Shown here: positions 17,994 through 53,997 of the stretch, piece after piece | How the letters are laid out: each line of letters opens with the position of its first letter | Position numbering within the stretch: the stretch's first letter is position 1 | Assembly: GCA_965603855.1 (NCBI GenBank) | Contig: OZ272519.1 | Span: 4,379,781 to 4,443,780, forward strand | From: Alphaproteobacteria bacterium | GTDB taxonomy: Bacteria > Pseudomonadota > Alphaproteobacteria > UBA8366 > G965603855 | Reading direction: 5' to 3' | DNA: 64,000 bases | Position numbers and translations under genes: made by a program | Notes under the pieces: model-generated | Database searches by the model: none | Told to the model about the DNA's origin: nothing | What the model saw: the letters and a program-made list of their open reading frames with translations, nothing else

Positions 17994-19763
17994 CTATTCG
18001 GGTGCTTTGGTGTCGCTGCGCCACAGCCCGCGAACGGCGACGACGGTGACGGCGACGTCCGGATCGTCCATCTGGTCGCGCACGATCTTCGTCAGATCGT
18101 CCGCGTAAGACCTGGGGAGCGCGTCGTGCGATGCGATGTGGATCATCACCCGATGCTGGCCGCGCGGGCGTGCCATGAACATGATCTCGACGCCTTCGTC
18201 CTGGCCCACCCGATCGTAAAGGGCGCGCGCCACCGCCCGCGTCACCGGGTGGGCTGCCGCCACGTTTTTTCCTTCCTCGATCCCTGCGATCAAGGCGGTG
18301 CTCAGCGGGCCGGCCACCGCAAGCAACAGCGCGACCAGCGCCACACGGGTCACCAGCGCACGCCGGCGAATCCGCGGCAGCGCCCGCTCGGCCGTGACGC
18401 CCAACAACCAGAAAACGAAGTTCGACATCACGATGATGGCGATCAGGTTGGTCACGAACAACAGCGCCGCCCCGTAGGCGTTCACCCACTCGCCCGCGGC
18501 CAGCGAGATGCCGATGGAACAGATCGGCGGGACCAGCGCGGTGGCGATGGCCACGCCGGCGATGGCACCGACGATGTTGGGGCGCGACATGGCGAAGGTT
18601 GCCGCGGCCGCCGCGAACACGGCGATCAAAAGGTCAAGGACATTCGGCCCGCCGCGGGCCAGCACCTCTTCCGACAGGGTTTCGCCTGCCGGGGTGACGG
18701 CGCCAATCGTCATGCTGACCGCCAGTGTCAGCAAGACGCCCAGCCCGATGGATTTGCCGCACATACGCCCCAGCGGCAGGTTAGCCTGGCACAGCGCGAG
18801 GCCGAGCCCGATCATCGGCGTCATCAAGGGGGCGAGCAGCATCGAGCCGATGACCACCGCCGGCGAGTTCTGCATCAGCCCCAGCGATGCAATGGCCGAG
18901 GCAAGCGCCAGCATGCAGACGAAGTCGGGGGCCCATTGCGATCCCATGCGCAGCGAGTAGCGCAGATCGGCGAGGTCGGCGGGATTGATGCGCGGCAGCC
19001 ATTCGGCCAGCGCGGTCAGGCGCAGCGGCGGGGTGCGTTTGACCAGCGCCACGGTCGCCGCGCCGAGGGATTGCCGCAAGGGGCGCAGGTGGCCTGCCGC
19101 ATTGGCGCCTGCCACGATCAAATCGTGATCGTCGAAGAGTTCGATGACACCCCGGTGTTTCAGCCGGTCGACCACGACCTTGATCTCGAAGTCCTGCTGA
19201 TCGAGCCTTTCGTCATGCACCAGAGACTGGATCCAATTGGCGCCCGCGCGCCCGGCCTGCGCACCGCTTTCGTCCTCGACCGCCCCGATGGTGACGCGGG
19301 CGCGCAGGCGCTTGCGCAATGTCTCCACAAGGCGCAGAGCCGGCCGGTCGTGAGCCTCCCCGGTCACCACCATCAAGACGCGCTTCAGGTCGCTTGGCTG
19401 CTTGGCGCCGAACAGCAGGGACAGGGTCTGGCAGGGCGAGGCACGCACCAGTTCGAGTGCGGTCTGCGGCCTGTCGCCCACCGCGGGCAACTCGAAGGCG
19501 CCGGTGACGAGGAGGCGGGCGTCCCGCCTGCGGACCTCGGCCGCGACCGCCTGGACCGGCGCAGGATCTTCGATCGAAATCAAGGTCGCGGAACCGGCAA
19601 GTTTTTCGTCCAGTGCCGCGCGCGCCGCCGCCTCGGCGCGCCCGTCGGACCCCAAGCCCAGACACAGGAAAACGATCTCTTCTCTTTCGCCCGCCAGTGC
19701 CCTGGTCCAGGCGACGACCGTCGCCGCGGTCTCCGGGCTCGGAACAAATCCAATGATGCTCAT
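17994..19763 (-). CDS. DUF389 membrane protein fused to N-terminal universal-stress-like domains
   Basis: NSPAVVIGSMLLAPLMTP and GVAIATALVPP DUF389 motifs; N-terminal alpha/beta USP-like region. Confidence 0.85.
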   Translation of the reverse strand: MSIIGFVPSPETAATVVAWTRALAGEREEIVFLCLGLGSDGRAEAAARAALDEKLAGSATLISIEDPAPVQAVAAEVRRRDARLLVTGAFELPAVGDRPQTALELVRASPCQTLSLLFGAKQPSDLKRVLMVVTGEAHDRPALRLVETLRKRLRARVTIGAVEDESGAQAGRAGANWIQSLVHDERLDQQDFEIKVVVDRLKHRGVIELFDDHDLIVAGANAAGHLRPLRQSLGAATVALVKRTPPLRLTALAEWLPRINPADLADLRYSLRMGSQWAPDFVCMLALASAIASLGLMQNSPAVVIGSMLLAPLMTPMIGLGLALCQANLPLGRMCGKSIGLGVLLTLAVSMTIGAVTPAGETLSEEVLARGGPNVLDLLIAVFAAAAATFAMSRPNIVGAIAGVAIATALVPPICSIGISLAAGEWVNAYGAALLFVTNLIAIIVMSNFVFWLLGVTAERALPRIRRRALVTRVALVALLLAVAGPLSTALIAGIEEGKNVAAAHPVTRAVARALYDRVGQDEGVEIMFMARPRGQHRVMIHIASHDALPRSYADDLTKIVRDQMDDPDVAVTVVAVRGLWRSDTKAPE

Positions 19764-19849: not shown

Positions 19850-19863
19850 TTGATGGGAATCAA
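19850..19863. promoter_or_regulatory. FNR/FixK box
   Basis: Exact TTGAT-GGGA-ATCAA in a divergent intergenic region. Confidence 0.8.
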
Positions 19864-19916: not shown

Positions 19917-19989
19917 TTTTCGGAATGTGTCATAAGGCAGGCATCCACCGACATTTCGCCGGCGAAGACCGAACGAGGGAGTGCGAGCC

Positions 19990-22137
19990 ATGACCAACGC
20001 GCTGACTGAGTACCTCACCGATGCCGCTCAACGTCAGGTCCTGTTCTGGGACGTGATGCGCGAGCGGGGCAATCAATACATCGAACACATGGCGGAAGAC
20101 GTGCCGCACGTGCTCGATTTCGACTACGAGCTGGTGATGGACGGGAAGGCGCTCAAGCGCCCGGTCAACTACGGCCTGGTGCGGATCCCGCCGCCCAAGG
20201 GCGTGGCGGTCGACCCGAAAAAGCGCCCCTTCGTCGTCATCGATCCCAGGGCCGGGCACGGCCCCGGCATCGGCGGCTTCAAGGCCGACAGCGAGATCGG
20301 CGTCGGCATGCGGGCCGGGCACGCCTGCTATTTCGTCGGCTTCACGCCGGATCCTGAGCCGGGTCAGACGATCGAAGACGTGATGCGCGCCGAGGTCGCC
20401 TTCCTGGAGAAGGTGATCGCGCTGCACCCCGACGCCGAGGGCAAACCGGCGGTGATCGGCAACTGCCAGGCCGGCTGGGCGGTCATGATGCTGGCCTCCT
20501 ATCGCCCCGACCTGTGCGGGCCGCTGATCCTGGCGGGCTCGCCGCTGTCCTACTGGGCCGGTGTCCGCGGTTCCAATCCGATGCGCTATTACGGTGGCCT
20601 CTATGGAGGAAGCTGGCTGGCTGCGCTGACCGGCGACCTTGGCCATGGTATCTTCGACGGCGCGTGGTTGGTTCAGAACTTCGAGGGACTTAACCCCGCG
20701 AACACGCTGTGGTCCAAGCAGTACAATCTCTATTCCAATGTCGACAAGGAACGCGATCGGTACCTCGGCTTCGAGAGGTGGTGGGGCGGTCACGTCACGC
20801 TGAATGCTGAGGAAATGCAGTTCATCGTCGACAAGCTGTTCGTCGGCAACAAGCTCTCGACGGCGGGCATCACCACCTCCGACAACGTGCGGCTCGATAT
20901 CCGCAAGATCCGCTCGCCGATCGTGGTGTTCTGCTCCAAGGGCGACAACATCACGCCGCCGCAGCAGGCGCTGGGCTGGATCCTGGACCTCTATGACAGC
21001 GTCGAGGACATCCAGGCCTCGGGCCAGACGATCGTCTATACGGTGCACGACAATATCGGCCATCTGGGCATCTTCGTTTCGGGCGGCGTTGCGAAGAAGG
21101 AGCATCAGGAATTCGCCTCCAACATCGACATGATCGACTGCCTGCCGCCGGGCCTCTACGAGGCGGTACTGCGGCCGAAGTCGGAGAAGGACGCCAATGC
21201 CGAGCTGGCCGCGAACGACTACATCTCGCGGTTCGAGCCCCGCACGCTCGATGCGATCCGGGCATTGGGCTGCAACGGCCTGGAGGACGAACGCCGGTTT
21301 GCGGCGGTGGAGCGCCTGTCGGACATCAATCTCGGCCTCTACCGCACCTTCGCACAGCCCGTCATCCGCGCGCTGAGCGGCGAGGCGCAGGCCTCGTTTG
21401 CGCGGGAAATGCATCCCATGCGGCTGGGCTATACGGTTCTTTCCGATCGCAATCCCTGGATGGCGACGGTCGCCCGGTCGGCCGAAACGGTGCGCAAGAA
21501 CCGCATGCCGGCGGCCGACAACAACCCCTTCCTGGCCTGGCAGAAGATGGTGGCCGATACCGTCGTGCGTTCGCTTGACGCCTATCGCGACTGGCGCGAC
21601 AGCATGATCGAGCACACGTTCCTCGGGATCTACGGGCAGCCGTGGCTCCAGGCCGCGCTGGGGCTCAACGCCCAGGAAGGGCCGCCGCGGCCCAAACCGG
21701 GCGAGGATCCCGACCATGTGGAGCTGATCGAGCGCAAGATCGCCGAGCTGACCGCCCGCATGGACCAGGGCGGGCCGACCGAGGCGGGCATCCGCGCCCT
21801 GCTCTATATCAAGATCGCCGCGGGCGGCGCCGCGGACGAACGCAGCTTCGCGCTGTTGGAGCGGGCGTGCAGGGAGCACGCGATCGGCCTGGAGGCGTTC
21901 AAGTCGATGGCGCGCGACCAGTACTTCATGCTGGTCCTCGACGAGGACCGCGCGATCGCGACCTTGCCCACGCTGTTCAAGGGGCACGAGGACGAAGCGA
22001 AAGACGTGCTCGACATCGTGCGTCGCGTGATTCTCGCGGGCGACGAACTGACGCCGGAATCGAAGAAGCGGTTGCAGACCATCGAACGGACGCTGACCAA
22101 GCTGGCCGGCTCGAAGGCTGCGATCGCCGCGGCGTGA
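19990..22137 (+). CDS. DUF3141 domain protein (PHA synthase/depolymerase-like alpha/beta hydrolase)
   Basis: DPRAGHGPGIGGFK, nucleophile GNCQAGW, HLGIFVS motifs. Confidence 0.92.
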   Translation: MTNALTEYLTDAAQRQVLFWDVMRERGNQYIEHMAEDVPHVLDFDYELVMDGKALKRPVNYGLVRIPPPKGVAVDPKKRPFVVIDPRAGHGPGIGGFKADSEIGVGMRAGHACYFVGFTPDPEPGQTIEDVMRAEVAFLEKVIALHPDAEGKPAVIGNCQAGWAVMMLASYRPDLCGPLILAGSPLSYWAGVRGSNPMRYYGGLYGGSWLAALTGDLGHGIFDGAWLVQNFEGLNPANTLWSKQYNLYSNVDKERDRYLGFERWWGGHVTLNAEEMQFIVDKLFVGNKLSTAGITTSDNVRLDIRKIRSPIVVFCSKGDNITPPQQALGWILDLYDSVEDIQASGQTIVYTVHDNIGHLGIFVSGGVAKKEHQEFASNIDMIDCLPPGLYEAVLRPKSEKDANAELAANDYISRFEPRTLDAIRALGCNGLEDERRFAAVERLSDINLGLYRTFAQPVIRALSGEAQASFAREMHPMRLGYTVLSDRNPWMATVARSAETVRKNRMPAADNNPFLAWQKMVADTVVRSLDAYRDWRDSMIEHTFLGIYGQPWLQAALGLNAQEGPPRPKPGEDPDHVELIERKIAELTARMDQGGPTEAGIRALLYIKIAAGGAADERSFALLERACREHAIGLEAFKSMARDQYFMLVLDEDRAIATLPTLFKGHEDEAKDVLDIVRRVILAGDELTPESKKRLQTIERTLTKLAGSKAAIAAA

Positions 22138-41980: not shown

Positions 41981-42355
41981 TCAGTTACAGGGAAAGCGGT
42001 CTTTCAGGGTCGCCATGAGGTTTTCGGCGGCGGCCTTGTTGCGGTCTTCGAAATGCTGGTTGTACCAGTACATGAAGGCCCAGCGCACCTCGTCGTCGCG
42101 GTTCTGTTCGGGCAGGCAGATGCCCGCGTCGGGCCCGACCGCACCGGCAAGGACCAGGGCGTCGGTGAAGCCGCGCAGGTACTGCTCGCACTCCGCCTCG
42201 GCCGCCGCGCCCCAGCGCGCGTCATTGTCGGATTCGTTGCACGGGTTGTAGAGCTCGCTGGCCGTGTAGCTGGAGAGCTCCGCCGCGCCGGCCGCCCAAC
42301 AGGTCGCCGACACCGCCAGCACGGCCGACGCAAGGATGCCCAATGGTCTGTTCAT
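41981..42355 (-). CDS. Rap1a/Tai-like secreted four-Cys protein
   Basis: Signal peptide; ELYNPC..., CEQYLRGFTD, ICLP, FPC C-terminus. Confidence 0.75.
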   Translation of the reverse strand: MNRPLGILASAVLAVSATCWAAGAAELSSYTASELYNPCNESDNDARWGAAAEAECEQYLRGFTDALVLAGAVGPDAGICLPEQNRDDEVRWAFMYWYNQHFEDRNKAAAENLMATLKDRFPCN

Positions 42356-42371
42356 GTCTCGCCTCCCGCGC

Positions 42372-44714
42372 TTATTCGCTGCGTTCTCGGGCATAGGCCC
42401 GCAGCGCCCGGTCCATCACCGCACGGTGTTGCTCGTTGCTGACGAACTTGGGCGAGTTCACCTTCGCCCAAAGGGTCGTGTCCGCCATGTTCTGGTGGCA
42501 GCCCATGCACAGCCCGGTGCGTTCGACCTTGGCCCGGACCGCGGCCGGCAACGGACCGGTCAGCGGCCAGTGCGAGCCGATCGAGACCAGTTGCTCGTCG
42601 TCGCGGGTGACGATCTGCGACAGGTCATGGTCCAGCGACGGCACCGGCTGGGACTGGAACTGGGACTGCTCGGGGATGATCTCGCCCATTGCGGTTTCCA
42701 GGTCCACCACGAAGCCGTCTTCGTAGCCGCGCAGGAAGCGGCCGTCCTCGATGCCGTAGCCCAGCGCCTTCGGGTTGTTGTGGCAGCTTTCGCAGGATCG
42801 CGCGTTGCGGCCGGCGGTGTGCGGCTGCACGGCGGCATGGTCCAGACCCTTGCCTTCCGGCGTGTTCCAGGTCTCGTTATGGACGACCGTGTTGCCGTTC
42901 TTGTCGATGACCGTGGTGATCACCTGACAGCCCGGCATCATCGGGCTGACTCGGCCCTCGCCGTTGATGCCGAGGATCGGCGTCTCCCACCGCAGATACG
43001 AGCGGGTCTCGCTGACCTTGCCTGCGCTCTTGATGCCGTTGGTGCCGAGTTCGGCGTCCGCGGTCAGGCCGTTGTCGCCGCGCGAGTTCGCGTTCTCGAT
43101 CCAGTCGACGTCTGTCTTGCCTTCGGAATAGTCGACGGTGACGTGGCAGCCGTAGCATTGCGGCGCCCAGTCGGCGTGGCAGGCGTAGCACTCCATGCTT
43201 TCCATGTGCTTGCCCACGTTGCCCATGGCGACCTGCGCATTGGGCGACTTCCACTCGTTGTCGATCGAAAGCTGTTTCAGCACCGGGACGTCGAAGTCGA
43301 GGCCCGACGCGGAATGCAGGATCACCTTCTTGCCGTCCTTGACGACGTTGCCCAGCGGGTTGCCGCGGGCGCTGATCAGATAGCCGTCCTGCGGATCGTA
43401 CTCGGTCGCGAACACCATGTAGTCGGGCAGCTCGTCGGTCAGGCCGCGCGGCTCGTCGCCGATATCCATCTGGTGTTCTTCGCCATGACCCAGCGGCAGC
43501 TCCCACGGGAACTTGGCGACGGTGCCGTGACAGTCCTCGCACTCGATCTCGACCTGCGCCAGCGTGGTGCCCGGCAGGTTGCCGTCGCCGTGCATGTCGA
43601 TCGAGGTGTGGCAGTCCTGGCACAACAGGCCGCCCTGCGGGTTGCCGGGCCGGCTCTGGACCTGGTGATGCAGGTCGTCCTTGATGAAGAGATAGTTCTT
43701 CGTGTGCAGCTTGGGCTGCTTGCCGCCGGTCGGGCTGTACGGGCTGCCGTAGGGGAATTCCATGATCCCCTGATAGCTGACGCCGATGCGCTTGCCGCGG
43801 TTGTGGCAGGAACTGCAGGATTCGTTCGGGATACCCGAATAGGTCAGCCCGTTGTGCGTCACCTTGGATTTCCGCGTGCCTTGCAGGCGGTGCACCAACA
43901 GCTTGCCCGGCTGTTCCTTGTTGATGGTCGGGTCGCCGCCTTCGTACAGCCCCTCGTTGCTGTAGGGCACGTGGCAGGACGAACAGCCCGCGCCGCGGTA
44001 GTCGCCGCGCTTCTCGCGTCCGTTCACGCCGACGTGGCAGCGCTGGCACTGCTGGCGCGAATAGGTGATGCCCGCAAGGTTCGGATGGCGCGGGATCTCG
44101 TTCACGTCGACTTCCGGAACCTGCTTCATCTGTTCCGGGATCTGGTCGCGGTGTTCTTCGACGAACTTGGTCATGTAGGCCTTGTAGGCATCCGTGCCGA
44201 CCGACGGCTCCGGACCGTCCTCGTCGACCAGGTCGTAGTTGCCCCAGACCACCTTGAAGTCTTTCTGCAGGCCCCAGGACCACAGGTTGCCCTGCAGCTT
44301 GCCGGCCTCGGTGTTCATCAACGACATCTCAAGACGCCGGGAGTAGCCGTCATGGCACTGCCCGCAGGCATTCTGCGAGACGCCGACGGCGCCGGGATCG
44401 GGATAGAAAAGGTGCGGCCCGCCCGCCTCGGTCAGTTCCCCAGGCGCACCGCTGTGCGCCGCGTCCTTGGTGGTCGCGGTGGGATTGCCGCCGTGACAGA
44501 CAACACAGCCGCCGGGATCGTTGAAATCGGCGCCCATCGCCTCGATGGTTTCCTGCATCTCACCGTCGGTGAAACGCTCGATCCCCTCGTGGCAGGACTG
44601 GCATCCCTTGGCGTTCGCCGCCTCGGCCGAAACCGTGTCGAACTGCTGCGCACCGGCCGGTGCCGCCAGGGTGAGTCCGATGATCAGACCTGAGAGAAGC
44701 GCCAGCTTTTTCAC
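42372..44714 (-). CDS. Periplasmic dodecaheme c-type cytochrome
   Basis: Signal peptide after GTG 44714; 12 CxxCH motifs counted (CQSCH, CVVCH, CGQCH, CQRCH, CSSCH x2, CQDCH, CEDCH, CYACH, CYGCH, CESCH, CMGCH). Confidence 0.92.
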   Translation of the reverse strand: MKKLALLSGLIIGLTLAAPAGAQQFDTVSAEAANAKGCQSCHEGIERFTDGEMQETIEAMGADFNDPGGCVVCHGGNPTATTKDAAHSGAPGELTEAGGPHLFYPDPGAVGVSQNACGQCHDGYSRRLEMSLMNTEAGKLQGNLWSWGLQKDFKVVWGNYDLVDEDGPEPSVGTDAYKAYMTKFVEEHRDQIPEQMKQVPEVDVNEIPRHPNLAGITYSRQQCQRCHVGVNGREKRGDYRGAGCSSCHVPYSNEGLYEGGDPTINKEQPGKLLVHRLQGTRKSKVTHNGLTYSGIPNESCSSCHNRGKRIGVSYQGIMEFPYGSPYSPTGGKQPKLHTKNYLFIKDDLHHQVQSRPGNPQGGLLCQDCHTSIDMHGDGNLPGTTLAQVEIECEDCHGTVAKFPWELPLGHGEEHQMDIGDEPRGLTDELPDYMVFATEYDPQDGYLISARGNPLGNVVKDGKKVILHSASGLDFDVPVLKQLSIDNEWKSPNAQVAMGNVGKHMESMECYACHADWAPQCYGCHVTVDYSEGKTDVDWIENANSRGDNGLTADAELGTNGIKSAGKVSETRSYLRWETPILGINGEGRVSPMMPGCQVITTVIDKNGNTVVHNETWNTPEGKGLDHAAVQPHTAGRNARSCESCHNNPKALGYGIEDGRFLRGYEDGFVVDLETAMGEIIPEQSQFQSQPVPSLDHDLSQIVTRDDEQLVSIGSHWPLTGPLPAAVRAKVERTGLCMGCHQNMADTTLWAKVNSPKFVSNEQHRAVMDRALRAYARERSE

Positions 44715-44821
44715 AACGGTCCCCCTTCGTCGCTGTGTCGCGCGGCACCCCCTTGCAGGCGGGACTCGCCGCACTTCTAGTCCATCCGTTCTATATCCTC
44801 CGCCGATTCCAGACCGCACAC

Positions 44822-44904
44822 TCTGACCTGGGTCAGAAAACCCGCAGATTTGCGCGGGAGAAACGTAACTTTGCGGTGCTGGCGTGTGGATTGACGCACG
44901 TCAT
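44822..44904. promoter_or_regulatory. Crp/Fnr-type palindromes in the cytochrome/fnr divergent region
   Basis: TCTGAC-CTGG-GTCAGA (44822-44837) and TTGAC-GCAC-GTCAT (44891-44904). Confidence 0.55.
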
Positions 44905-44972
44905 GGCTCCGTCGCCCGGAATCGCCTCATTTGTGGCGGAAAAGAACAGTTCGTTCGTTGCAGGGAGACCCG

Positions 44973-45803
44973 ATGTCGACGCAGTCACACGATCAGGATC
45001 TGAACGGCACGGTGGATCTGCCGTGCGATACGTGCCGCGTCGAAGCCCGCTGTCGGTTGCCGGACCATCTCGTGGCGCTGGCCGACCTCGGCCCGCACCA
45101 CCCGTTGGACCATCAGAACGTGCCGCGCGGCCATCTGTTGATGCGCGACACGGACGATTCTCACGATTTGTGGATCATCGTTTCCGGCCTTGCGGTGATA
45201 CAATATGTCCTACCCGACGGGCGGCGGCAGATCTTGGATTTCCGTTTTCCAGGCGAGATATTGTGTCCGGGCCTGATCGGCCAACACTCGGAATTGTCGG
45301 CACAAACCGTCTGTCCGACGGAGCTGTGCCACATCAACGGCCGCGACCTGGCGGAGATCGCCGTGCACCGGCCGAAACTGGTGGAGGAACTGTTCGATAT
45401 CGCCTGTGCCCAGATCAAGCGCGCGAACCTGCAGATGCTGCTTCTGGGCCGGCTGACGGTGCCCGAACGCATCGCCACCTTCCTGTTGGAGATGGCCGAG
45501 CGCGCCGGACAGCCACGGCGCGACGGCGTGGAGATCGACCTGCCGATGAACCGGGACGACATCGCCGATTACCTGGGTCTCAACCCCGAGACCGTCAGCC
45601 GATCGCTGACCCGGCTGAAGAAGGCGGGCGTGATCATCCTGCCGCAGCCCGGCCGGGCGGTGCTGTCCGACGCGGAGGCGCTGCAGGGCATGACGCCGTT
45701 CACCGAAGGACACCGGCCATTCGTCGAGAAGAGCGGCATTCACCGGGAAATGGTACAGCCGCGGATGGCGGTCTGCCCTGTCCGTCACGACCATGACGGC
45801 TGA
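44973..45803 (+). CDS. Crp/Fnr family regulator with N-terminal Cys cluster
   Basis: C-x2-C-x5-C N-terminus, DGRRQILDF, recognition helix LGLNPETVSR. Confidence 0.92.
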   Translation: MSTQSHDQDLNGTVDLPCDTCRVEARCRLPDHLVALADLGPHHPLDHQNVPRGHLLMRDTDDSHDLWIIVSGLAVIQYVLPDGRRQILDFRFPGEILCPGLIGQHSELSAQTVCPTELCHINGRDLAEIAVHRPKLVEELFDIACAQIKRANLQMLLLGRLTVPERIATFLLEMAERAGQPRRDGVEIDLPMNRDDIADYLGLNPETVSRSLTRLKKAGVIILPQPGRAVLSDAEALQGMTPFTEGHRPFVEKSGIHREMVQPRMAVCPVRHDHDG

Positions 45804-45821
45804 GACCGCGGAACCTCGCTC

Positions 45822-47822
45822 GTGATCGCTGAAATCGGACATTTCGCCCTGATGCTCGCGCTTGCGGTCGCGCTCGTCCAGATGAGCGTGCCCATGATCG
45901 GTGCCCAGACCGGCCGGGCCGGCTGGATGGCGACCGCGACGCCGGCCGCACAGCTACAGTTCGTGCTGATCGCGATTTCGTTCGCCGCGCTGACGCGGGC
46001 CTACGTGGTTTCGGACTTTTCGCTGATCAACGTCGCGGAGAACTCCCACTCGGCAAAGCCGATGCTCTACAAGATCACCGGCGTCTGGGCGAACCACGAA
46101 GGCTCGATGCTGTTGTGGGTCCTGATCCTGGCGCTGTTCGGCATGCTGGTCGCCAGTTTCGGCCGCAACCTGCCGCCGCGGCTGAAGGCGCGTGTGCTGG
46201 GCGTTCAGGGCATGATCGGCGTCAGCTTCATCTTGTTTATCCTGGCGACGTCGAATCCCTTTACCCGCATACCCTTTCCGCCGATGGACGGCCGCGGCAT
46301 GAACCCGCTGTTGCAGGACCCGGGCGTCGCCTTCCACCCGCCGTTCCTCTACATGGGCTATGTGGGCCTGTCGGTGTCGTTCTCCTTTGCGGTCGCCGCC
46401 CTGATCGAAGGCCGGCTCGACGCCGCCTGGGCGCGCTGGGTCCGGCCCTGGACCCTGCTTGCCTGGAGCACGCTGACCATGGGCATCGCCATGGGAAGCT
46501 GGTGGGCCTATTACGAGCTCGGCTGGGGCGGCTGGTGGTTCTGGGACCCGGTCGAGAACGCGTCTTTCATGCCGTGGCTGCTGGCGACCGCGCTGTTGCA
46601 CTCGGCGATCGTCGTCGAAAAGCGCGACACCTTGAAGAAATGGACCGTTCTCCTGGCGATCCTGGCCTTTTCGCTCAGCCTCGTCGGCACGTTCCTGGTC
46701 CGCTCGGGCGTGTTGAGCTCGGTGCACGCCTTCGCCACGGATCCCGCCCGCGGCGTCTTCATTCTGGCGATCCTGGCGATCGCCATCGGCGGCTCGCTGG
46801 TGCTTTATGCCTGGCGGGCGCCTGCCTTGCAGGCCGGCGGCCTGTTCGCGCCGGTCTCGCGCGAAGGCGGCCTGTTGTTGAACAACCTCTTGATGGCGAC
46901 CTCCTGCGCCACCGTCCTTCTGGGCACGCTCTATCCCCTGGGCATCGACGTGCTCGGCGGCGGCAAGGTTTCGGTCGGACCGCCCTACTTCAACGCCACC
47001 TTCGTGCCGCTGATGGTGCCGATGATCGTCGCCATGGGCGTCGGACCGCTGTTGCCCTGGAAGCGCGGCGACCTGGCGGGTGCGATGCAGCGGCTGCGCT
47101 GGGCGCTGGCTGCGGCGCTTGCGGCGGTCGCGTTCACGCTGTGGGTCCGCTGGGGCGGGCCGGTCCTGGCGGCGTTGGGCATGGGGCTTGCGGCGTGGCT
47201 GGGCATGGCGACGCTGGTGGAACTTGCCGAGCGCATCAAGCTGTTCCGGGCGCCGGCGGGCGAATCGCTGCGCCGGGCGCGCCATCTGCCCCGCGCGGCC
47301 TACGGCATGACGCTGGCGCATCTGGGGCTTGCCGTCACGATCGCCGGCATCACCGGGATCTCCGCCTGGAAGACCGAATCGATCCAGGCGCTGTCGCCGG
47401 GTGAGGCAGCAGAGGTGGACGGATACTCCTTCGAGCTGGTCGATGTTCAGGACATGCCCGGTCCCAACTACCAGACCCGGATCGCCACCGTACGGGTCAG
47501 CCGCGACGGCGAACCGGTCGCGGTCCTGTTCCCCGAGAAACGCTGGTACCCGGTCCAGCGCCAGGACACCACCGAGGCGGCCATCCATTCCAGCGGCATG
47601 GGCGACGTCTATGCGGCGATCGGCGATCCCAGCGGCGACGGGCGCTGGGTCACGCGTTTCTATTCGAACCCGACGGTGCCCTGGATCTGGCTCGGGTCCC
47701 TGATCATGGTGCTTGGCGGGCTGGTTTCGCTCACCGACCGGCGCCTGCGCGTCGGCGCGCCCAAGCGTAAGACCGCGCGCGTTACGCATCAGACCGCAGC
47801 GGCCGGCGGCGTCGGCGACTAG
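45822..47822 (+). CDS. ccmF: Cytochrome c heme lyase
   Basis: WANHEGSMLLW, HPPFLYMG, WGGWWFWDPVEN (WWD motif), SVHAFA. Confidence 0.97.
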   Translation: MIAEIGHFALMLALAVALVQMSVPMIGAQTGRAGWMATATPAAQLQFVLIAISFAALTRAYVVSDFSLINVAENSHSAKPMLYKITGVWANHEGSMLLWVLILALFGMLVASFGRNLPPRLKARVLGVQGMIGVSFILFILATSNPFTRIPFPPMDGRGMNPLLQDPGVAFHPPFLYMGYVGLSVSFSFAVAALIEGRLDAAWARWVRPWTLLAWSTLTMGIAMGSWWAYYELGWGGWWFWDPVENASFMPWLLATALLHSAIVVEKRDTLKKWTVLLAILAFSLSLVGTFLVRSGVLSSVHAFATDPARGVFILAILAIAIGGSLVLYAWRAPALQAGGLFAPVSREGGLLLNNLLMATSCATVLLGTLYPLGIDVLGGGKVSVGPPYFNATFVPLMVPMIVAMGVGPLLPWKRGDLAGAMQRLRWALAAALAAVAFTLWVRWGGPVLAALGMGLAAWLGMATLVELAERIKLFRAPAGESLRRARHLPRAAYGMTLAHLGLAVTIAGITGISAWKTESIQALSPGEAAEVDGYSFELVDVQDMPGPNYQTRIATVRVSRDGEPVAVLFPEKRWYPVQRQDTTEAAIHSSGMGDVYAAIGDPSGDGRWVTRFYSNPTVPWIWLGSLIMVLGGLVSLTDRRLRVGAPKRKTARVTHQTAAAGGVGD

Positions 47823-47838
47823 GGATGGAGTTCGGGTG

Positions 47839-48372
47839 ATGCAGCAGCGTCTGGTAGTGCTGGTCCCTGTGGTCGTGTTCCTGGCCATGGCCGCGGTGTT
47901 TTTCCTGGGCCTGGGGCGCGACCCGAAGATCGTGCCGTCGGCGCTGATCGACCAGCCGGTGCCGATTTTCGAACTGCCCACCATCGACGGGGCGGCAACG
48001 GGCCTCGCCAGCGCGGACCTGACCGGTGCCGTGACCGTGGTCAACGTGTTCGCGTCCTGGTGCATTCCCTGCAGGGCCGAGCACGGCCTTTGGATGGACG
48101 TTGCCGAGCAGGGCGACGTTCGGCTGATCGGCATCAACTACAAGGACGAGGCGGGCGCGGCGGCGCGCTGGCTCGAGGAACTTGGCGATCCCTACGAGCG
48201 CATCGGCGCCGACCGGGACGGCCGGGTCGGGATCGACTGGGGCGTCTACGGCGTGCCGGAGACCTTCATCGTCGATCGGACCGGTCGCATCCGCTACAAG
48301 CATGTCGGCCCGGTCAGCGAGGAAACCTGGCGCGAGGTCATCCAGCCGACCATCGCAAGCCTCAGTTCCTGA
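47839..48372 (+). CDS. ccmG: Periplasmic thiol:disulfide oxidoreductase
   Basis: NVFASWCIPC, GVYGVPETF. Confidence 0.95.
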   Translation: MQQRLVVLVPVVVFLAMAAVFFLGLGRDPKIVPSALIDQPVPIFELPTIDGAATGLASADLTGAVTVVNVFASWCIPCRAEHGLWMDVAEQGDVRLIGINYKDEAGAAARWLEELGDPYERIGADRDGRVGIDWGVYGVPETFIVDRTGRIRYKHVGPVSEETWREVIQPTIASLSS

Positions 48373-48374
48373 TC

Positions 48375-48839
48375 ATGCGTCGTTTGCTCGTCTTCTGTTT
48401 GCTTTTGCTGGCGCCGCTGTCGGCGCCGGCCGTGGAGCCGGACGAGATCCTGAAGGATCCGGCGCTGGAGGCCCGGGCGCGCGAGATCGGCAAGAACCTG
48501 CGCTGCCTGGTCTGCCAGAACCAGTCGATCGACGATTCCAACGCCGCCTTGGCGAAGGACCTTCGGGTCCTGGTGCGCGAACGGCTGGTGGCCGGCGACA
48601 GCAACGACGAGACGATCGAATTCGTCGTCGCGCGGTACGGCGACTACGTGCTCTTGAAGCCGCCGTTCAAGCCGACGACCTATTTCCTTTGGTTCGGTCC
48701 GCTGGTGCTGCTGGCGCTGGCGCTGTTGGGGGTCTGGGGCTTCTACCGCAGCCAGCGGCGCGCCAAGCCCCCCGCCGCCGCCATGAGCGAGGAAGAGCAC
48801 GCACTGGCCAAATCGCTGTTGAAAGACGACCCGCAATGA
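48375..48839 (+). CDS. ccmH: Cytochrome c biogenesis protein CcmH/CycL
   Basis: LRCLVCQNQSIDDSNA, RYGDYVLLKP. Confidence 0.95.
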   Translation: MRRLLVFCLLLLAPLSAPAVEPDEILKDPALEARAREIGKNLRCLVCQNQSIDDSNAALAKDLRVLVRERLVAGDSNDETIEFVVARYGDYVLLKPPFKPTTYFLWFGPLVLLALALLGVWGFYRSQRRAKPPAAAMSEEEHALAKSLLKDDPQ

Positions 48840-50251
48840 CCCTGTGGCTGATCCTGGGCGCGATGGCCGCGCTGACCGCGGGATTGGTCTTGTGGCCCAT
48901 GCTGGCCCGGCGTTCCGAGACGGATGCGACCGCGGACGCCGACCTTGCCATCTATCGCGACCAGCTCAAGGAGATCGACCGCGACGTCGAGCGCGGGCTG
49001 CTCAACGCCGACGAGGCGACGGCGGCGCGCGGCGAGATCGAACGGCGGGTCCTGGGCACCCGCGCGCTGAAGGGCGAGGCCACCGTCGACGCGCGGCGCA
49101 GCCCGATCGGCGCCGCGATCGTGGTGGTGTTGGTCTGCGGCACGGCGGGCGGGCTTTACGCCTGGCTGGGGGCGCCCGGCGTCCCCGACCAGCCGCTGGC
49201 GGCGCGCCTGACCCAACAACAGCAACAGCAGGCCCAGGGCGGCGACATCGACAGCCGGATCGAGATCCTTGCAGAGAAGGTCAAGGAGGACCCGGACAAC
49301 CTCGACCAGTGGTTCCTGCTGGGCCGGTCCTATGCCTTCGTCGAGCGTTACGCCGAGGCGGCAGAGGCCTACCGGCGCGCCGTCGAACTCAGCGACAACG
49401 ACCCGCGGATCCTGTCCACCTATGCCGAGGCGGTCGTCTTGGCCAATGGCAACAAGGTGACCCAAACCGCCCACCTGGCCTTCACGGAGGTCAACCGGGC
49501 GCTGCCGGACGAGCCCCGCGCGCGTTACTACCTGGCGCTCTACCAAGCCCAACAGCAGAACTACCGGGCGGCGATGGACGGCTGGCTGGCGCTTTTGGAA
49601 GATTCGCCGCCGGACGCGGGCTGGGTGCCTTTGCTGCGCGCACGCATCACCGACATGGCGACTTTCCTCGATATCGACGTAGCCACGGTGTTGCCCGACG
49701 CCCCGGCACAGGCCGCGGCGGCGGCGCCGGCAACAGGCGTCGACCCGATCACGGCGCTGGAGACGCGGCTCGCCGCCAACCCCAAGGATTACGAAGGCTG
49801 GCTGTCGCTTGCCCGCGCCAAGGCGGCGATGGGCGACCGGGACGGCGCCGTCGCGGCGCTGGACGAGGTGTCGCGGCTCTATCCCGGGGCGCCCTTCGTC
49901 CAACAGGAGATCGGCCGCGCCCGGGCGGAACTGGGCCTTGCCGACGGTGGCGGCGTGGCGTCCGGCCGGCGCGGGCCTTCGGCCGAGGACATGGCGGCGG
50001 CCCGCGAGATGACGCCGGAGGAACAGGCCGAGATGATCAGCGGCATGGTCGAAGGCCTTGCTGCGCGGTTGGAGGAGCAGCCCAACGACCTGGAAGGCTG
50101 GATCATGCTGATCCGTTCCTACGGCGTGCTGGAACGGCCCGACGAAGCAAAGGCGGCGGTCGACCGGGCGCTTGCCGCCTTCGACGGCCGGCCCGACGCG
50201 CAAACCGCGATCCGCCGCACCGCCGCACAGTTGGGCGTCTCCACCCAATAA
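48836..50251 (+). CDS. ccmI: Cytochrome c biogenesis TPR protein CcmI/CycH
   Basis: IYRDQLKEIDRD, ARGEIERRVL, TPR repeats; ATGA overlap with ccmH. Confidence 0.92.
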   Translation: MTLWLILGAMAALTAGLVLWPMLARRSETDATADADLAIYRDQLKEIDRDVERGLLNADEATAARGEIERRVLGTRALKGEATVDARRSPIGAAIVVVLVCGTAGGLYAWLGAPGVPDQPLAARLTQQQQQQAQGGDIDSRIEILAEKVKEDPDNLDQWFLLGRSYAFVERYAEAAEAYRRAVELSDNDPRILSTYAEAVVLANGNKVTQTAHLAFTEVNRALPDEPRARYYLALYQAQQQNYRAAMDGWLALLEDSPPDAGWVPLLRARITDMATFLDIDVATVLPDAPAQAAAAAPATGVDPITALETRLAANPKDYEGWLSLARAKAAMGDRDGAVAALDEVSRLYPGAPFVQQEIGRARAELGLADGGGVASGRRGPSAEDMAAAREMTPEEQAEMISGMVEGLAARLEEQPNDLEGWIMLIRSYGVLERPDEAKAAVDRALAAFDGRPDAQTAIRRTAAQLGVSTQ

Positions 50252-51844: not shown

Positions 51845-52945
51845 CTAGGCCGGCGTCGACCCCGCCTGCTGCCGCATCCTTTCGGCGAACGCGTTGCGGA
51901 TGCGCGCGCCTTCGGCATCGAAGAAGAAGCTGAGCAGCACGTAGCGGCTGCCCTTGGTCACGGGCGCGGCCTCGTGCATCAAGGAACAGGAAAACACCAC
52001 CGCCGCGCCCGACGGCGGCTTGTAGGCGCCGCCGCCGAACTCGGGAAAGGTGAGCTCACCGCCCTCGTATTCCTCGCTGTTCAGGTTCAGCGTCATGGCG
52101 AACTGGCGGTGCGCGGTCGCGTCCAGCGTGTTGTCCCGGTGCGGCCGGAAATAGCCGCCGGTCTCCGCGTCATAACGCACCAGCTTGAATTCCTCGGCAT
52201 GGGCGATCTTGCACTGGAAGGCGACCGCGATCTCGGGGATCACCCGGCGACCCAGGATCCGGAGCAGCCGCTGCTGCATTTCCGGCTCCTGCACCTGATG
52301 GTCCATGCGCCGTTTCATGCCGTAGTTGGGCGAATTGACCATCTCGCCGTCGACCGCCCGCCAGGTGCCGCCCTCTTCCTTGTCGTGCGTTTCGAAATAG
52401 TCGATCAGCTCGCGGCATTCCGCCGGCGACAGCGCATTGGGAACGACCAGGATCGGTGCATGCGGCGGCGCATCGAACTGCTGCGGCCGGCCGATTTCTT
52501 CCACTGCCGCCAGGGTGCGGTCCACCAGCGGCCCGTCCGACGGCTCCAGCCTGGAATGGACACGCTGCGTCGGATCCAGGACATAACAGACCAGTCGGTC
52601 CGCTGCGCCGTAGCTGGCGGCGATCGAGTGGTCGGGATCGGAGACCATGAAGTTGCCGGGTTCCTGCCGGGCGGCGAATTCCGCGGTCGCCTCCACGGTG
52701 TCACCGCTGACGGTGAAGACCTGGGCGCCGGCCTCGCGCAGCAGTTCGCGCGCCTCGGTAAAGCCGTCCAGCGTCGCCACCACTTCCGGGTCGCTGTGAT
52801 CGGGATAGAACAGCACCACCAGCGCACCGCCCAGCGCCCGGTCGTAAAGGCTGACCATGTTGCCGTCCTTCTTGACGAAGGTGATGTCCGGCGCCCGCTC
52901 GCCCGGTGCGAGCCCGGCCTGGCCGGTGTCCGCCGCGGCGCTCAT
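51845..52945 (-). CDS. Redoxin (AhpC/TSA-like)-2OG-Fe(II) oxygenase fusion, copy 2
   Basis: GERAPD Prx-like N-domain; HRDNT, LMHEA, GSRYVLL facial triad and Arg. Confidence 0.85.
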   Translation of the reverse strand: MSAAADTGQAGLAPGERAPDITFVKKDGNMVSLYDRALGGALVVLFYPDHSDPEVVATLDGFTEARELLREAGAQVFTVSGDTVEATAEFAARQEPGNFMVSDPDHSIAASYGAADRLVCYVLDPTQRVHSRLEPSDGPLVDRTLAAVEEIGRPQQFDAPPHAPILVVPNALSPAECRELIDYFETHDKEEGGTWRAVDGEMVNSPNYGMKRRMDHQVQEPEMQQRLLRILGRRVIPEIAVAFQCKIAHAEEFKLVRYDAETGGYFRPHRDNTLDATAHRQFAMTLNLNSEEYEGGELTFPEFGGGAYKPPSGAAVVFSCSLMHEAAPVTKGSRYVLLSFFFDAEGARIRNAFAERMRQQAGSTPA

Positions 52946-53997
52946 TCGGCTTCTCCCGCCTGTTGTTGGGCCATCTGGCGGCGCACCGCCTGACGCATCT
53001 GCTCGCCCTCCTCGTCATACAGAAACGTCAGCAGGACGTATCGGCTGCCGGTTTCCACGTCGGTCGCCTCGTGCATCAGCGAACAGGAGAAAACCACCGC
53101 CTCGCCGGCCGCCGGCTTGTAGGCCGCCCCGCCGTACTCGGGAAACCGCAGCCGGCCGCCTTCGTACTCGTCGCTGTTCAGGTTCAGCGTCATGGCAAAG
53201 CGGCGGTGCGCGTTCGACGGCATGGTGTTGTCGCGGTGCGGCCGGAAATAGCCGCCCGGGTCCGCGTCGTATCGAACGATCTTGAGCTCTTCGACGCGTG
53301 TCATCTTCGCCTGGAACGCCCGGAAGATCTCGGGGAAGATCCGGCTCCCGAACGCCTTCGTCAGCATCTCGACCAGCGCCGGATCGCGCACCAGGCAATC
53401 GTGCCGGCGTTTGGATTTGTGGTTGATCTTGCGTACCGGCTTGCCGCCTTCCAGCGTGTAGGTGCCGCTTTCGGCGCTGCCTTCGGTGTTGAAATAGTCG
53501 ATCAGCCGCGCGCATTGCTCGGGGCTGAGCGCCCTGGGGATGCTGAGGACCGGGGGGTGGCGCGGCACCGAGAAACGCGCCGGGACCGGCGTTTCGCGGA
53601 CCACGGCTGCGGCGCGGTCTGCAAGCGGCGCCTCGCCGGCCTCCAGACGGGCCAGGATCCGCTGGTTCGCGTCAAGCACCAGCGCCAGCGCCGCGCCGCC
53701 GGTGCCGAACTGCGCCGCGATCCGGCCGTCGGGGTCGGGCGCCGCAAGGACGCGGTCGTCAAGCCCGGCGCCGTCGGCGCCGATCACGAACAGGTGCGCG
53801 CCCGCTTCCAGCATTGCCGGTGCCGCCGCCGCAAGCGCCGTGATCTCGGCGGCGGAACCGTTGCCGGCGGCGGGAAGAAAGAACAGCGCCAGCGGGCCGC
53901 CGGTTGCCTCGGAATAGAGGCTCTTCACCGCGCCCGCGGCGTCGTTGAACTGGAAATTGGGCGCGCGGTCGCCCGCCTCCAGGAATGTCGTCTGCAT
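52942..53997 (-). CDS. Redoxin (AhpC/TSA-like)-2OG-Fe(II) oxygenase fusion, copy 1
   Basis: GDRAPNF Prx-like N-domain; HRDNT, LMHEA, GSRYVLL. Confidence 0.85.
   Translation of the reverse strand: MQTTFLEAGDRAPNFQFNDAAGAVKSLYSEATGGPLALFFLPAAGNGSAAEITALAAAAPAMLEAGAHLFVIGADGAGLDDRVLAAPDPDGRIAAQFGTGGAALALVLDANQRILARLEAGEAPLADRAAAVVRETPVPARFSVPRHPPVLSIPRALSPEQCARLIDYFNTEGSAESGTYTLEGGKPVRKINHKSKRRHDCLVRDPALVEMLTKAFGSRIFPEIFRAFQAKMTRVEELKIVRYDADPGGYFRPHRDNTMPSNAHRRFAMTLNLNSDEYEGGRLRFPEYGGAAYKPAAGEAVVFSCSLMHEATDVETGSRYVLLTFLYDEEGEQMRQAVRRQMAQQQAGEAE

Follow-up and report, generated by a model that had tools for sequence, protein, structure and literature searches.

A 12-heme cytochrome, an Fnr-type regulator and the sole ccmFGHI genes of an alphaproteobacterial genome as a probable low-oxygen redox module

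The window analyzed here is a stretch of 64,000 nucleotides (C1:4379781-4443780) of the single-contig, 4.98-Mb genome (98% complete) of an alphaproteobacterium; unless prefixed with C1, coordinates are window positions. It contains a compact locus in which the genes for a 12-heme periplasmic cytochrome c and a small Rap1a-fold partner protein are divergent from a gene for an Fnr-type regulator that heads ccmF, ccmG, ccmH and ccmI, four genes for cytochrome c maturation. We consider it fairly probable that this locus represents the fusion of a low-oxygen redox module with the heme-attachment operon of the cell. Three features are specific to the window: the ccm cluster is split; its CcmF and CcmI are sisters to a clade of “private” lyase proteins, that is, copies that accompany the same cytochrome in other genomes; and the only non-motif cysteine of the cytochrome, Cys597, co-varies with heme 10. 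The behavior of this single cysteine is what is new here. The link between the cytochrome and lyase genes is real and is kept far outside this genome, but the lyase of the window does not belong to the cytochrome alone; the self-contained cytochrome-Fnr-lyase module proposed in an earlier note, which was made from the window sequence alone, therefore holds up with respect to linkage but not to exclusivity.

The cytochrome gene (42372..44714, minus strand) encodes a 780-amino acid protein with 12 conserved CxxCH motifs, a partial match to the ExtM family and the lone invariant Cys597. The partner gene (41981..42355, minus strand), which starts 16 bp past the cytochrome stop codon on the same strand, encodes a 124-amino acid protein with a signal peptide and a Rap1a-fold domain (PF18602, 56 bits vs. 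a cut-off of 27.7). An intergenic region of 258 bp separates the cytochrome from the divergent fnr (44973..45803, plus strand), the product of which, 276 amino acids long, contains a four-cysteine [4Fe-4S]-type motif and matches the cNMP_binding, HTH_Crp_2 and Crp models. The stop codon of fnr (45803) is followed, after a gap of 18 bp, by the GTG start codon of ccmF (45822..47822, plus strand; TIGR00353, 672 bits vs. a cut-off of 569; CcmF_C, 418 bits), and then by ccmG (DsbE; 47836..48372, plus strand; TIGR00385, 182 bits vs. a cut-off of 123), ccmH (48369..48839, plus strand; PF03918, 173 bits), in which the RCxxC motif reads LRCLVC, and ccmI (48836..50251, plus strand; TIGR03142, 88 bits vs. 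a cut-off of 29; PF23914 match), which encodes a TPR apocytochrome chaperone. The junctions within ccmF-ccmG-ccmH-ccmI are small gaps or 4-bp overlaps, and terminator-like sites between fnr and ccmI do not exceed the number expected by chance. Two descriptions in the earlier note, that of a periplasmic protein of about 780 amino acids with 12 CxxCH motifs and long heme-free stretches, divergent from an Fnr-type gene, and that of the 18-bp gap between this gene and ccmF-G-H-I, are confirmed by the sequence, and all four ccm proteins score above the Pfam/NCBIfam cut-offs.

The arrangement recurs in other bacteria. In 77 of the 80 fetched loci of other species on which our neighborhood counts are based, the partner gene lies directly downstream of the cytochrome gene and on its strand; 52 of the loci have a divergent fnr, and 45 have ccmF adjacent to the cytochrome. 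The usual order is fnr-ccmF-ccmH-ccmI, without ccmG, reading away from the divergently oriented cytochrome and partner genes. In many other marine bacteria, with a count of 36 loci, the cytochrome comes with private ccmF-H-I sets that lack ccmG. Each of the 11 tested genomes with the fnr-ccmF-H-I type of locus carries two or three copies of ccmF; the four tested genomes with other types carry one copy each.

The regulator contains four cysteines (Cys18-x2-Cys21-x5-Cys27 and Cys119) with the spacing of Escherichia coli FNR, because of which oxygen sensing through a [4Fe-4S] cluster can be predicted; these cysteines are kept in 35–46 of the 52 cytochrome-linked Fnr proteins. It passes the PF00027, PF13545 and PF00325 cut-offs and falls below those of the named orthologs (FixK, 127 vs. 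300 bits; FnrL, 94 vs. 300 bits; Fnr, 75 vs. 228 bits). By sequence comparison, it is a paralog separate from the four others encoded in this genome: in the tree, it clusters with the cytochrome-linked Fnr proteins of other genomes, apart from its own four paralogs, with modest support (Shimodaira–Hasegawa-like approximate likelihood ratio test, SH-aLRT, 83).

Of the 52 loci, 47 have a TTGA-N6-TCAA box, with no more than one mismatch, between the cytochrome gene and fnr; shuffled sequences gave 4.5 on average and 13 at most. The 52 regions contain 24 perfect boxes, with 0.19 expected. In the window, there is an FNR/FixK-type box, TTGACGCACGTCAT (44891..44904), centered 75 bp upstream of the fnr ATG, and an imperfect palindrome of the same type, CTGACCTGGGTCAG (44823..44836), centered 115 bp upstream of the cytochrome start, which we infer to belong to the cytochrome promoter; both positions would suit promoters with the box near -41.5. 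Oxygen sensing, autoregulation and co-transcription of fnr with ccmF appear plausible given these features. Two points speak against this regulatory scheme: CTGACCTGGGTCAG has two mismatches to TTGA-N6-TCAA, and both the fnr-ccmF co-transcription and the control by oxygen are deduced from spacing and motifs only. Between the two boxes, immediately upstream of the cytochrome-proximal one on the minus strand, lies a GC-rich hairpin that is followed by TTTT (44841-44858, minus strand); the count of hairpin-TTTT sites in the divergent promoter region is not above chance. Elsewhere in the window, a perfect FNR box, TTGATGGGAATCAA (19850-19863), is located between the divergent genes for a DUF389 protein (17994-19763, minus strand) and a DUF3141 protein (19981-22137, plus strand), a pair that may be a further member of an Fnr/FixK regulon.

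The ccmFGHI genes are not the second, dedicated lyase set that the earlier note suspected. The genome yields one CcmF_C match, and tblastn searches with the window proteins and with the CcmH and CcmI of order relatives as queries detected no second ccmF, ccmH or ccmI, that is, the module harbors the sole genome copies of these three genes; the lack of a second ccmF is one half of what the earlier note itself had named as evidence against its proposal. As the only CcmF, CcmH and CcmI of the cell, this set must also mature the photosynthetic reaction-center cytochrome PufC, an OTR-type octaheme cytochrome, and all the mono- and diheme cytochromes. The earlier note is correct that ccmABCDE are absent from the window, but they are present in the genome, 87 kb upstream (C1:4335766-4339142), where ccmE is directly followed by a second, divergent ccmG/DsbE-like gene (C1:4335766-4336392, minus strand; 48% identity to the window ccmG, which is hence one of two genome copies). 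The CcmG tree gives no placement for this second copy, the branch of which has a length of 2.95; the window ccmG is nested within the CcmG group of its order. The second ccmG may be a remnant of a once contiguous ccmABCDEFGHI cluster or an unrelated paralog.

Comparison with the canonical System I ccmABCDEFGHI clearly brings out the peculiarity of this layout. As in the canonical system, the window CcmF, CcmG, CcmH and CcmI pass the family cut-offs and have intact motifs; the WWD motif WGGWWFWDPVEN and His172, His260, His302 and His500 of CcmF are shared by all 70 CcmF proteins in the comparison. In contrast to the canonical system, the cluster is split, with FGHI located behind fnr at a distance of 87 kb from ABCDE, and the extra ccmG follows ccmE. 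In all 11 same-order relatives for which 19 kb were examined, as well as in two other genomes, the ccm genes are contiguous, in the order ccmA-B-C-(D)-E-F-G-H-I; compared with these relatives, the window genome alone has FGHI separated from the other ccm genes and following the cytochrome-linked fnr, the old locus reading A-B-C-D-E-G. The F-G-H-I order itself, which the earlier note took to be unusual, is not: ccmF is followed by ccmG and then by ccmH and/or ccmI in all 29 same-order relatives with the locus in hand. None of these 29 has an fnr within 1.5 kb upstream of ccmF. Two metagenomic relatives, with cytochromes 86% and 93% identical to that of the window, retain the fnr-ccmFGHI arrangement, one of the two with a 4-bp overlap between fnr and ccmF. 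The flanks of the module share nothing with order relatives beyond the ccm genes.

The cytochrome gene starts with GTG, preceded by a GGGGGA ribosome-binding site, and its product carries a Sec-type signal peptide, MKKLALLSGLIIGLTLAAPAGA. The CxxCH motifs begin at residues 39, 71, 118, 224, 245, 301, 366, 393, 510, 521, 642 and 737 (781-amino acid numbering), with heme-free stretches of about 90–117 amino acids between motifs 3 and 4, 8 and 9, 10 and 11, and 11 and 12; all 12 motifs are kept across 78 homologs, and the family shares 15 conserved non-motif histidines. A c7-like N-terminal region, an MtrC-type domain (PF22113, residues 220-399, 41 bits) and a beta-rich C-terminal half can be recognized. 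Residues 490-670 match the NCBIfam models ExtN and ExtO, and the top family match is to ExtM (NF040943), at 227 bits vs. a cut-off of 800, covering residues 202-655 and profile positions 127-510 of 599. Searches of a Protein Data Bank (PDB) sequence library that includes the MccSep chains 9wt8 and 9wt9 yielded no relatives, either by sequence (E-values up to 1) or by profile (E-values up to 10), and a Foldseek comparison of a low-confidence AlphaFold2 model with the PDB produced nothing below E = 2. On this evidence, the cytochrome lies outside every characterized family, its closest named relative being the unstudied ExtM of Geobacter. Membership in NrfA, HAO, MccA, OTR or MtrA/C was considered and rejected, given that the respective family models were not reached: the OTR model TIGR04315 gives no match to the 12-heme protein; with respect to MtrA, MtrC and OmcA, the score against TIGR03507 is 18 bits vs. 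a cut-off of 209, and the only match is that of a single domain, PF22113; and the protein has neither the CX15CH nor the CX12NKGCH of MccA/SirA, binds 12 hemes and not eight, and matches no such family. The earlier note, which could not assign the cytochrome to NrfA, HAO, MccA, OTR or MtrA, was right in this respect.

The family is large: protein searches returned more than 2500 homologs, clustering at 50% identity left 1274 representatives, and 262 genome stretches contain matches. Close homologs are 66–94% identical, and across the 80 fetched loci, the close family retains 66–80% identity, the heme-free stretches of about 100 amino acids included. These loci span Rhodospirillales, Kiloniellales, Rhodobacterales, Hyphomicrobiales and gammaproteobacterial sulfur-cycle taxa such as Beggiatoa-like bacteria, Thiotrichales, Chromatiales and Woeseia. 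Within the order of the window genome, only 3 of 40 relatives carry the cytochrome, which indicates that it is an accessory, horizontally spread gene. In the literature on dodecaheme cytochromes, ccmF paralogs and dedicated lyases in Rhodobacterales, we found no description of the module. The genome contains only three open reading frames with at least three CxxCH motifs: the 12-heme cytochrome, an OTR-family octaheme (C1:1361268-1362992, minus strand; TIGR04315, 635 bits vs. a cut-off of 375) with an apparent C-terminal transmembrane helix, and the tetraheme PufC (C1:274610-275749, minus strand; NF040706, 445 bits); because PufC is encoded, the organism is likely to be a phototroph, either purple or aerobic anoxygenic.

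Outside the heme motifs, the cytochrome contains a single cysteine, Cys597 (context MMPGC/PGCQ), which is invariant in the close family. Among the 78 superfamily representatives that cover both sites, Cys597 and heme motif 10 (C521-x-x-C-H) are both present in 47 and both absent in 15; 12 have the heme motif only, and 4 have the cysteine only, several of the latter resembling damaged sequences. This co-variation (Fisher test, p = 7e-6, a statistic that ignores phylogeny, which tells against it) is most simply explained by Cys597 being a ligand of heme 10 or packing against it; heme 10 is probably His/Cys-ligated by Cys597. There are further arguments to the contrary. The 15 conserved non-motif histidines could in principle suffice for bis-His ligation of all 12 hemes, and the AlphaFold2 model, built from a 74-sequence alignment, is too poor for placing Cys597 or the distal ligands (predicted local distance difference test, pLDDT, 59; predicted template modeling score, pTM, 0.56). 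As separate observations, six distant homologs of similar length (P0125, P0126, P0133, P0137, P0138 and P0143) have lost both the heme 10 motif and the cysteine of PGC, and of the 12 representatives that keep heme 10 without the cysteine, 4 (P0176, P0190, P0203 and P0223) have glycine instead (PGGQ).

In TsdA, SoxAX and DsrJ, a His/Cys heme is the hallmark of catalysis. The predicted His/Cys heme of the window cytochrome possibly hints at sulfur chemistry, which we regard as a lead and not as a demonstration. A newly described polysulfide reductase, MccSep, also contains a His/Cys-ligated heme (PMC13510729). The window cytochrome resembles this set of enzymes, TsdA, SoxAX, DsrJ and MccSep, in being periplasmic and in having a single non-motif cysteine tied to one heme, and, as with these enzymes, it is found in sulfur-cycling habitats and taxa; sequence similarity to TsdA, SoxAX, DsrJ or MccSep was not detected. 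Homology to MccSep (ExtKL) in particular was considered and rejected, chains 9wt8 and 9wt9 remaining unmatched by sequence or profile; MccSep is a pentaheme with a cysteine ligand and a selenocysteine or cysteine nucleophile, whereas the window cytochrome has one free cysteine and no second cysteine or selenocysteine.

An alternative is that the cytochrome is no enzyme but stores or conducts electrons in the periplasm, as a buffer during anoxia. The number of conserved histidines, enough for bis-His ligation throughout, the c7-type and MtrC-like electron-transfer domains, and the lack of a partner reductase or quinol dehydrogenase gene in the module neighborhood of three loci would all fit such a role. 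However, the high identity across alpha- and gammaproteobacterial orders runs through the long heme-free stretches, an invariant lone cysteine is tied to one specific heme, and the partner protein is almost always present; we therefore consider a mere electron store rather unlikely. The cytochrome may be a terminal reductase or oxidase, as the earlier note suggested.

The partner protein matches the Rap1a/Tai4 immunity family (PF18602) of the type VI secretion system (T6SS), and its Cys52, Cys69, Cys93 and Cys136 are 97–100% conserved. Among the Pfam-annotated neighbors in three loci, there was no amidase effector or T6SS gene; the whole genome was not screened for T6SS. The cytochrome might be a soluble periplasmic protein that works with this four-cysteine partner.

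With respect to context, the nearest named system is the extHIJKLMNOPQS gene set of Geobacter sulfurreducens, in which ExtM (GSU2935), itself uncharacterized, is, like the window protein, a large multiheme periplasmic cytochrome. The score against the ExtM model is far under the equivalog cut-off, so that the window protein is a distant relative and not an ortholog. In Geobacter, the mccsep (extKL) gene is located immediately upstream of the ExtM gene (PMC13510729). The window module, in contrast, lacks a porin, a rhodanese and MccSep, and has the Rap1a-fold partner, Fnr and ccm genes instead; no porin gene was seen beside the module in three loci.

A closer parallel in organization is provided by NrfA with NrfEFG of E. 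coli and SirA with SirEFG of Shewanella, where a multiheme cytochrome is likewise linked to CcmF-, CcmH- and CcmI-type proteins and where anaerobic regulation, predicted for the window system, is a common feature. The private sets of other genomes have the exact NrfE/F/G composition (F, H and I without G). The window set differs from NrfEFG and SirEFG in being the only one in its genome and in including ccmG, its CcmF falls short of NrfE (648 bits vs. the TIGR03145 equivalog cut-off of 927), and the cytochrome has no CXXCK or CX15CH. Indeed, the non-canonical heme site that, according to the earlier note, might call for a special lyase was not found: all 12 sites are canonical CxxCH, with no CXXCK or CXnCH among them, so that no special lyase is obviously needed, an argument against a dedicated function of the ccm genes.

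How the FGHI genes came to lie next to the cytochrome was addressed with trees of CcmF and CcmI (IQ-TREE, LG+C20). The private CcmF proteins form one clade (support 100/100) with a long stem (0.49–0.60) and, because the WWD motif and the four functional histidines are kept, look active. The window CcmF joins this clade with 100/99 support, to the exclusion of 29 order relatives, which form a clade of their own (98/96), and of 22 other housekeeping CcmF proteins; its branch length is 0.27 vs. 0.49 for the private-clade stem. The CcmI tree, as independent evidence, shows the same topology even more clearly (100/99, branch length 0.43), and the window CcmI is 41–49% identical to private CcmI proteins vs. 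29–40% to the CcmI proteins of its order. Too few alignment positions separate the two groups strictly to decide the matter, with 3 module-like vs. 2 housekeeping-like positions in CcmF and 2 vs. 0 in CcmI. The sister relationship should be weighed against the facts that the trees are unrooted, that the approximately unbiased (AU) test against grouping the window CcmF with its own order is borderline (p = 0.053), and that the window CcmF is 60–66% identical to order relatives vs. 57–65% to private copies.

The lyase genes of several other carriers are worth recording. One private cassette (L163:6450-8867) encodes a fusion of CcmF and CcmH of 805 amino acids (Cytochrom_C_asm, CcmF_C and CcmH domains). 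Three Roseobacter-group genomes (L095, L098 and L101; G008, G003 and G007, respectively) encode a third CcmF that belongs to a separate long-stemmed clade (100/100) and may be a further dedicated lyase for a different cytochrome. A same-order carrier of the cytochrome (L160; G035:C110:2034-5872) has a second ccm set, ccmG-F-H-I, on a contig other than that of the cytochrome, which could be yet another variant of the private lyase or contamination (4%). In a second type of adjacency, found in 5–6 Rhodospirillales, the partner gene is followed by the sole ccmFGHI of the genome, and the respective CcmF proteins fall in the housekeeping group.

The same affinities could arise if the window lineage were an early recipient, to which ccmF(G)HI came together with the cytochrome cassette through horizontal transfer and which subsequently lost the native ccmF, ccmH and ccmI, the ccmG after ccmE being a remnant. 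The native-position locus, A-B-C-D-E-G without F, H and I, is what deletions in a contiguous cluster would be expected to leave, and the closeness of the window CcmI to private CcmI also agrees with transfer. However, it is the ccmG within the window FGHI that nests in its own order, whereas the one after ccmE is aberrant; no private cassette seen elsewhere has ccmG; and the window CcmF lacks an accelerated branch like the private stem. We consider such an early transfer unlikely. That the adjacency is incidental, with an accessory cytochrome/Fnr island beside an ordinary housekeeping ccmFGHI and no functional coupling, we consider very improbable: although the genome contains no second such ccm set, the gene order is the one typical of this bacterial order, the cytochrome is accessory and the flanks share no synteny with relatives, ccmFGHI was never seen detached from ccmABCDE in the relatives examined, the fnr-ccmF junction is kept in close relatives (stop and start overlapping in one), the same gene order with private copies is found in 36 fetched loci, with an extra ccmF in every tested genome of this type, and the Rhodospirillales show an independent second type of adjacency.

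The reading we prefer, fusion of a low-oxygen redox module with the heme-attachment operon, would work as follows. Within the divergent promoter region of 258 bp, Fnr would recognize boxes of the TTGA-N6-TCAA type and activate two units, the cytochrome with the Rap1a-like partner, and its own transcription unit running into ccmF-G-H-I. Synthesis of the 12-heme apoprotein would thereby be coupled to extra capacity of the lyase (CcmF/H), the chaperone (CcmI) and the thiol reductase (CcmG). Because the module has no quinol dehydrogenase, electrons probably pass via soluble cytochromes or the bc1 complex. As to the origin of this arrangement, the FGHI half of the native cluster would have been relocated, or duplicated with reciprocal loss, to a site beside the cytochrome and fnr in or near the window lineage, and the private cassettes elsewhere would descend from such an arrangement; most likely, as we infer from the trees and gene orders, the window shows the arrangement from which the mobile private cassette arose.

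A more far-reaching scenario, which we put forward tentatively, is that the window captures the birth state of a mobile cassette: in this lineage, the FGHI half of the housekeeping System I cluster would have been separated from ccmABCDE and have come under the control of the Fnr of an accessory 12-heme cytochrome, and the self-sufficient unit consisting of the cytochrome, partner, fnr and ccmF-H-I would then have spread horizontally across marine Alpha- and Gammaproteobacteria, the cytochrome being a new sulfur enzyme with a His/Cys heme that acts on polysulfide, thiosulfate or tetrathionate, and CcmI having co-evolved with it. Such co-evolution of CcmI would explain why the lyase is carried along despite all 12 sites being canonical CxxCH.

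The window also encodes two tandem paralogs (51845-52945 and 52942-53997, minus strand) in which an AhpC/TSA redoxin is fused to a 2-oxoglutarate-Fe(II) oxygenase domain (the first was checked by Pfam); this redoxin-oxygenase pair also adjoins the module in the relative with the 86% identical cytochrome (L164).

To our knowledge, the known dedicated heme lyases (NrfEFG, SirEFG and CcsA1) all serve non-canonical heme sites. A CcmF-H-I trio tied to a cytochrome with canonical sites only points to a different reason for having a private lyase, such as the supply needed for a substrate with 12 hemes or the specificity of the CcmI chaperone. In the window genome, we see a naturally occurring stage halfway between a housekeeping lyase and a private one. 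Marine sediment bacteria very commonly carry members of the cytochrome family, and the predicted His/Cys heme provides a concrete, testable handle on its function; if the cytochrome indeed acts on sulfur compounds at low oxygen, this would add an unrecognized enzyme to coastal sulfur cycling.

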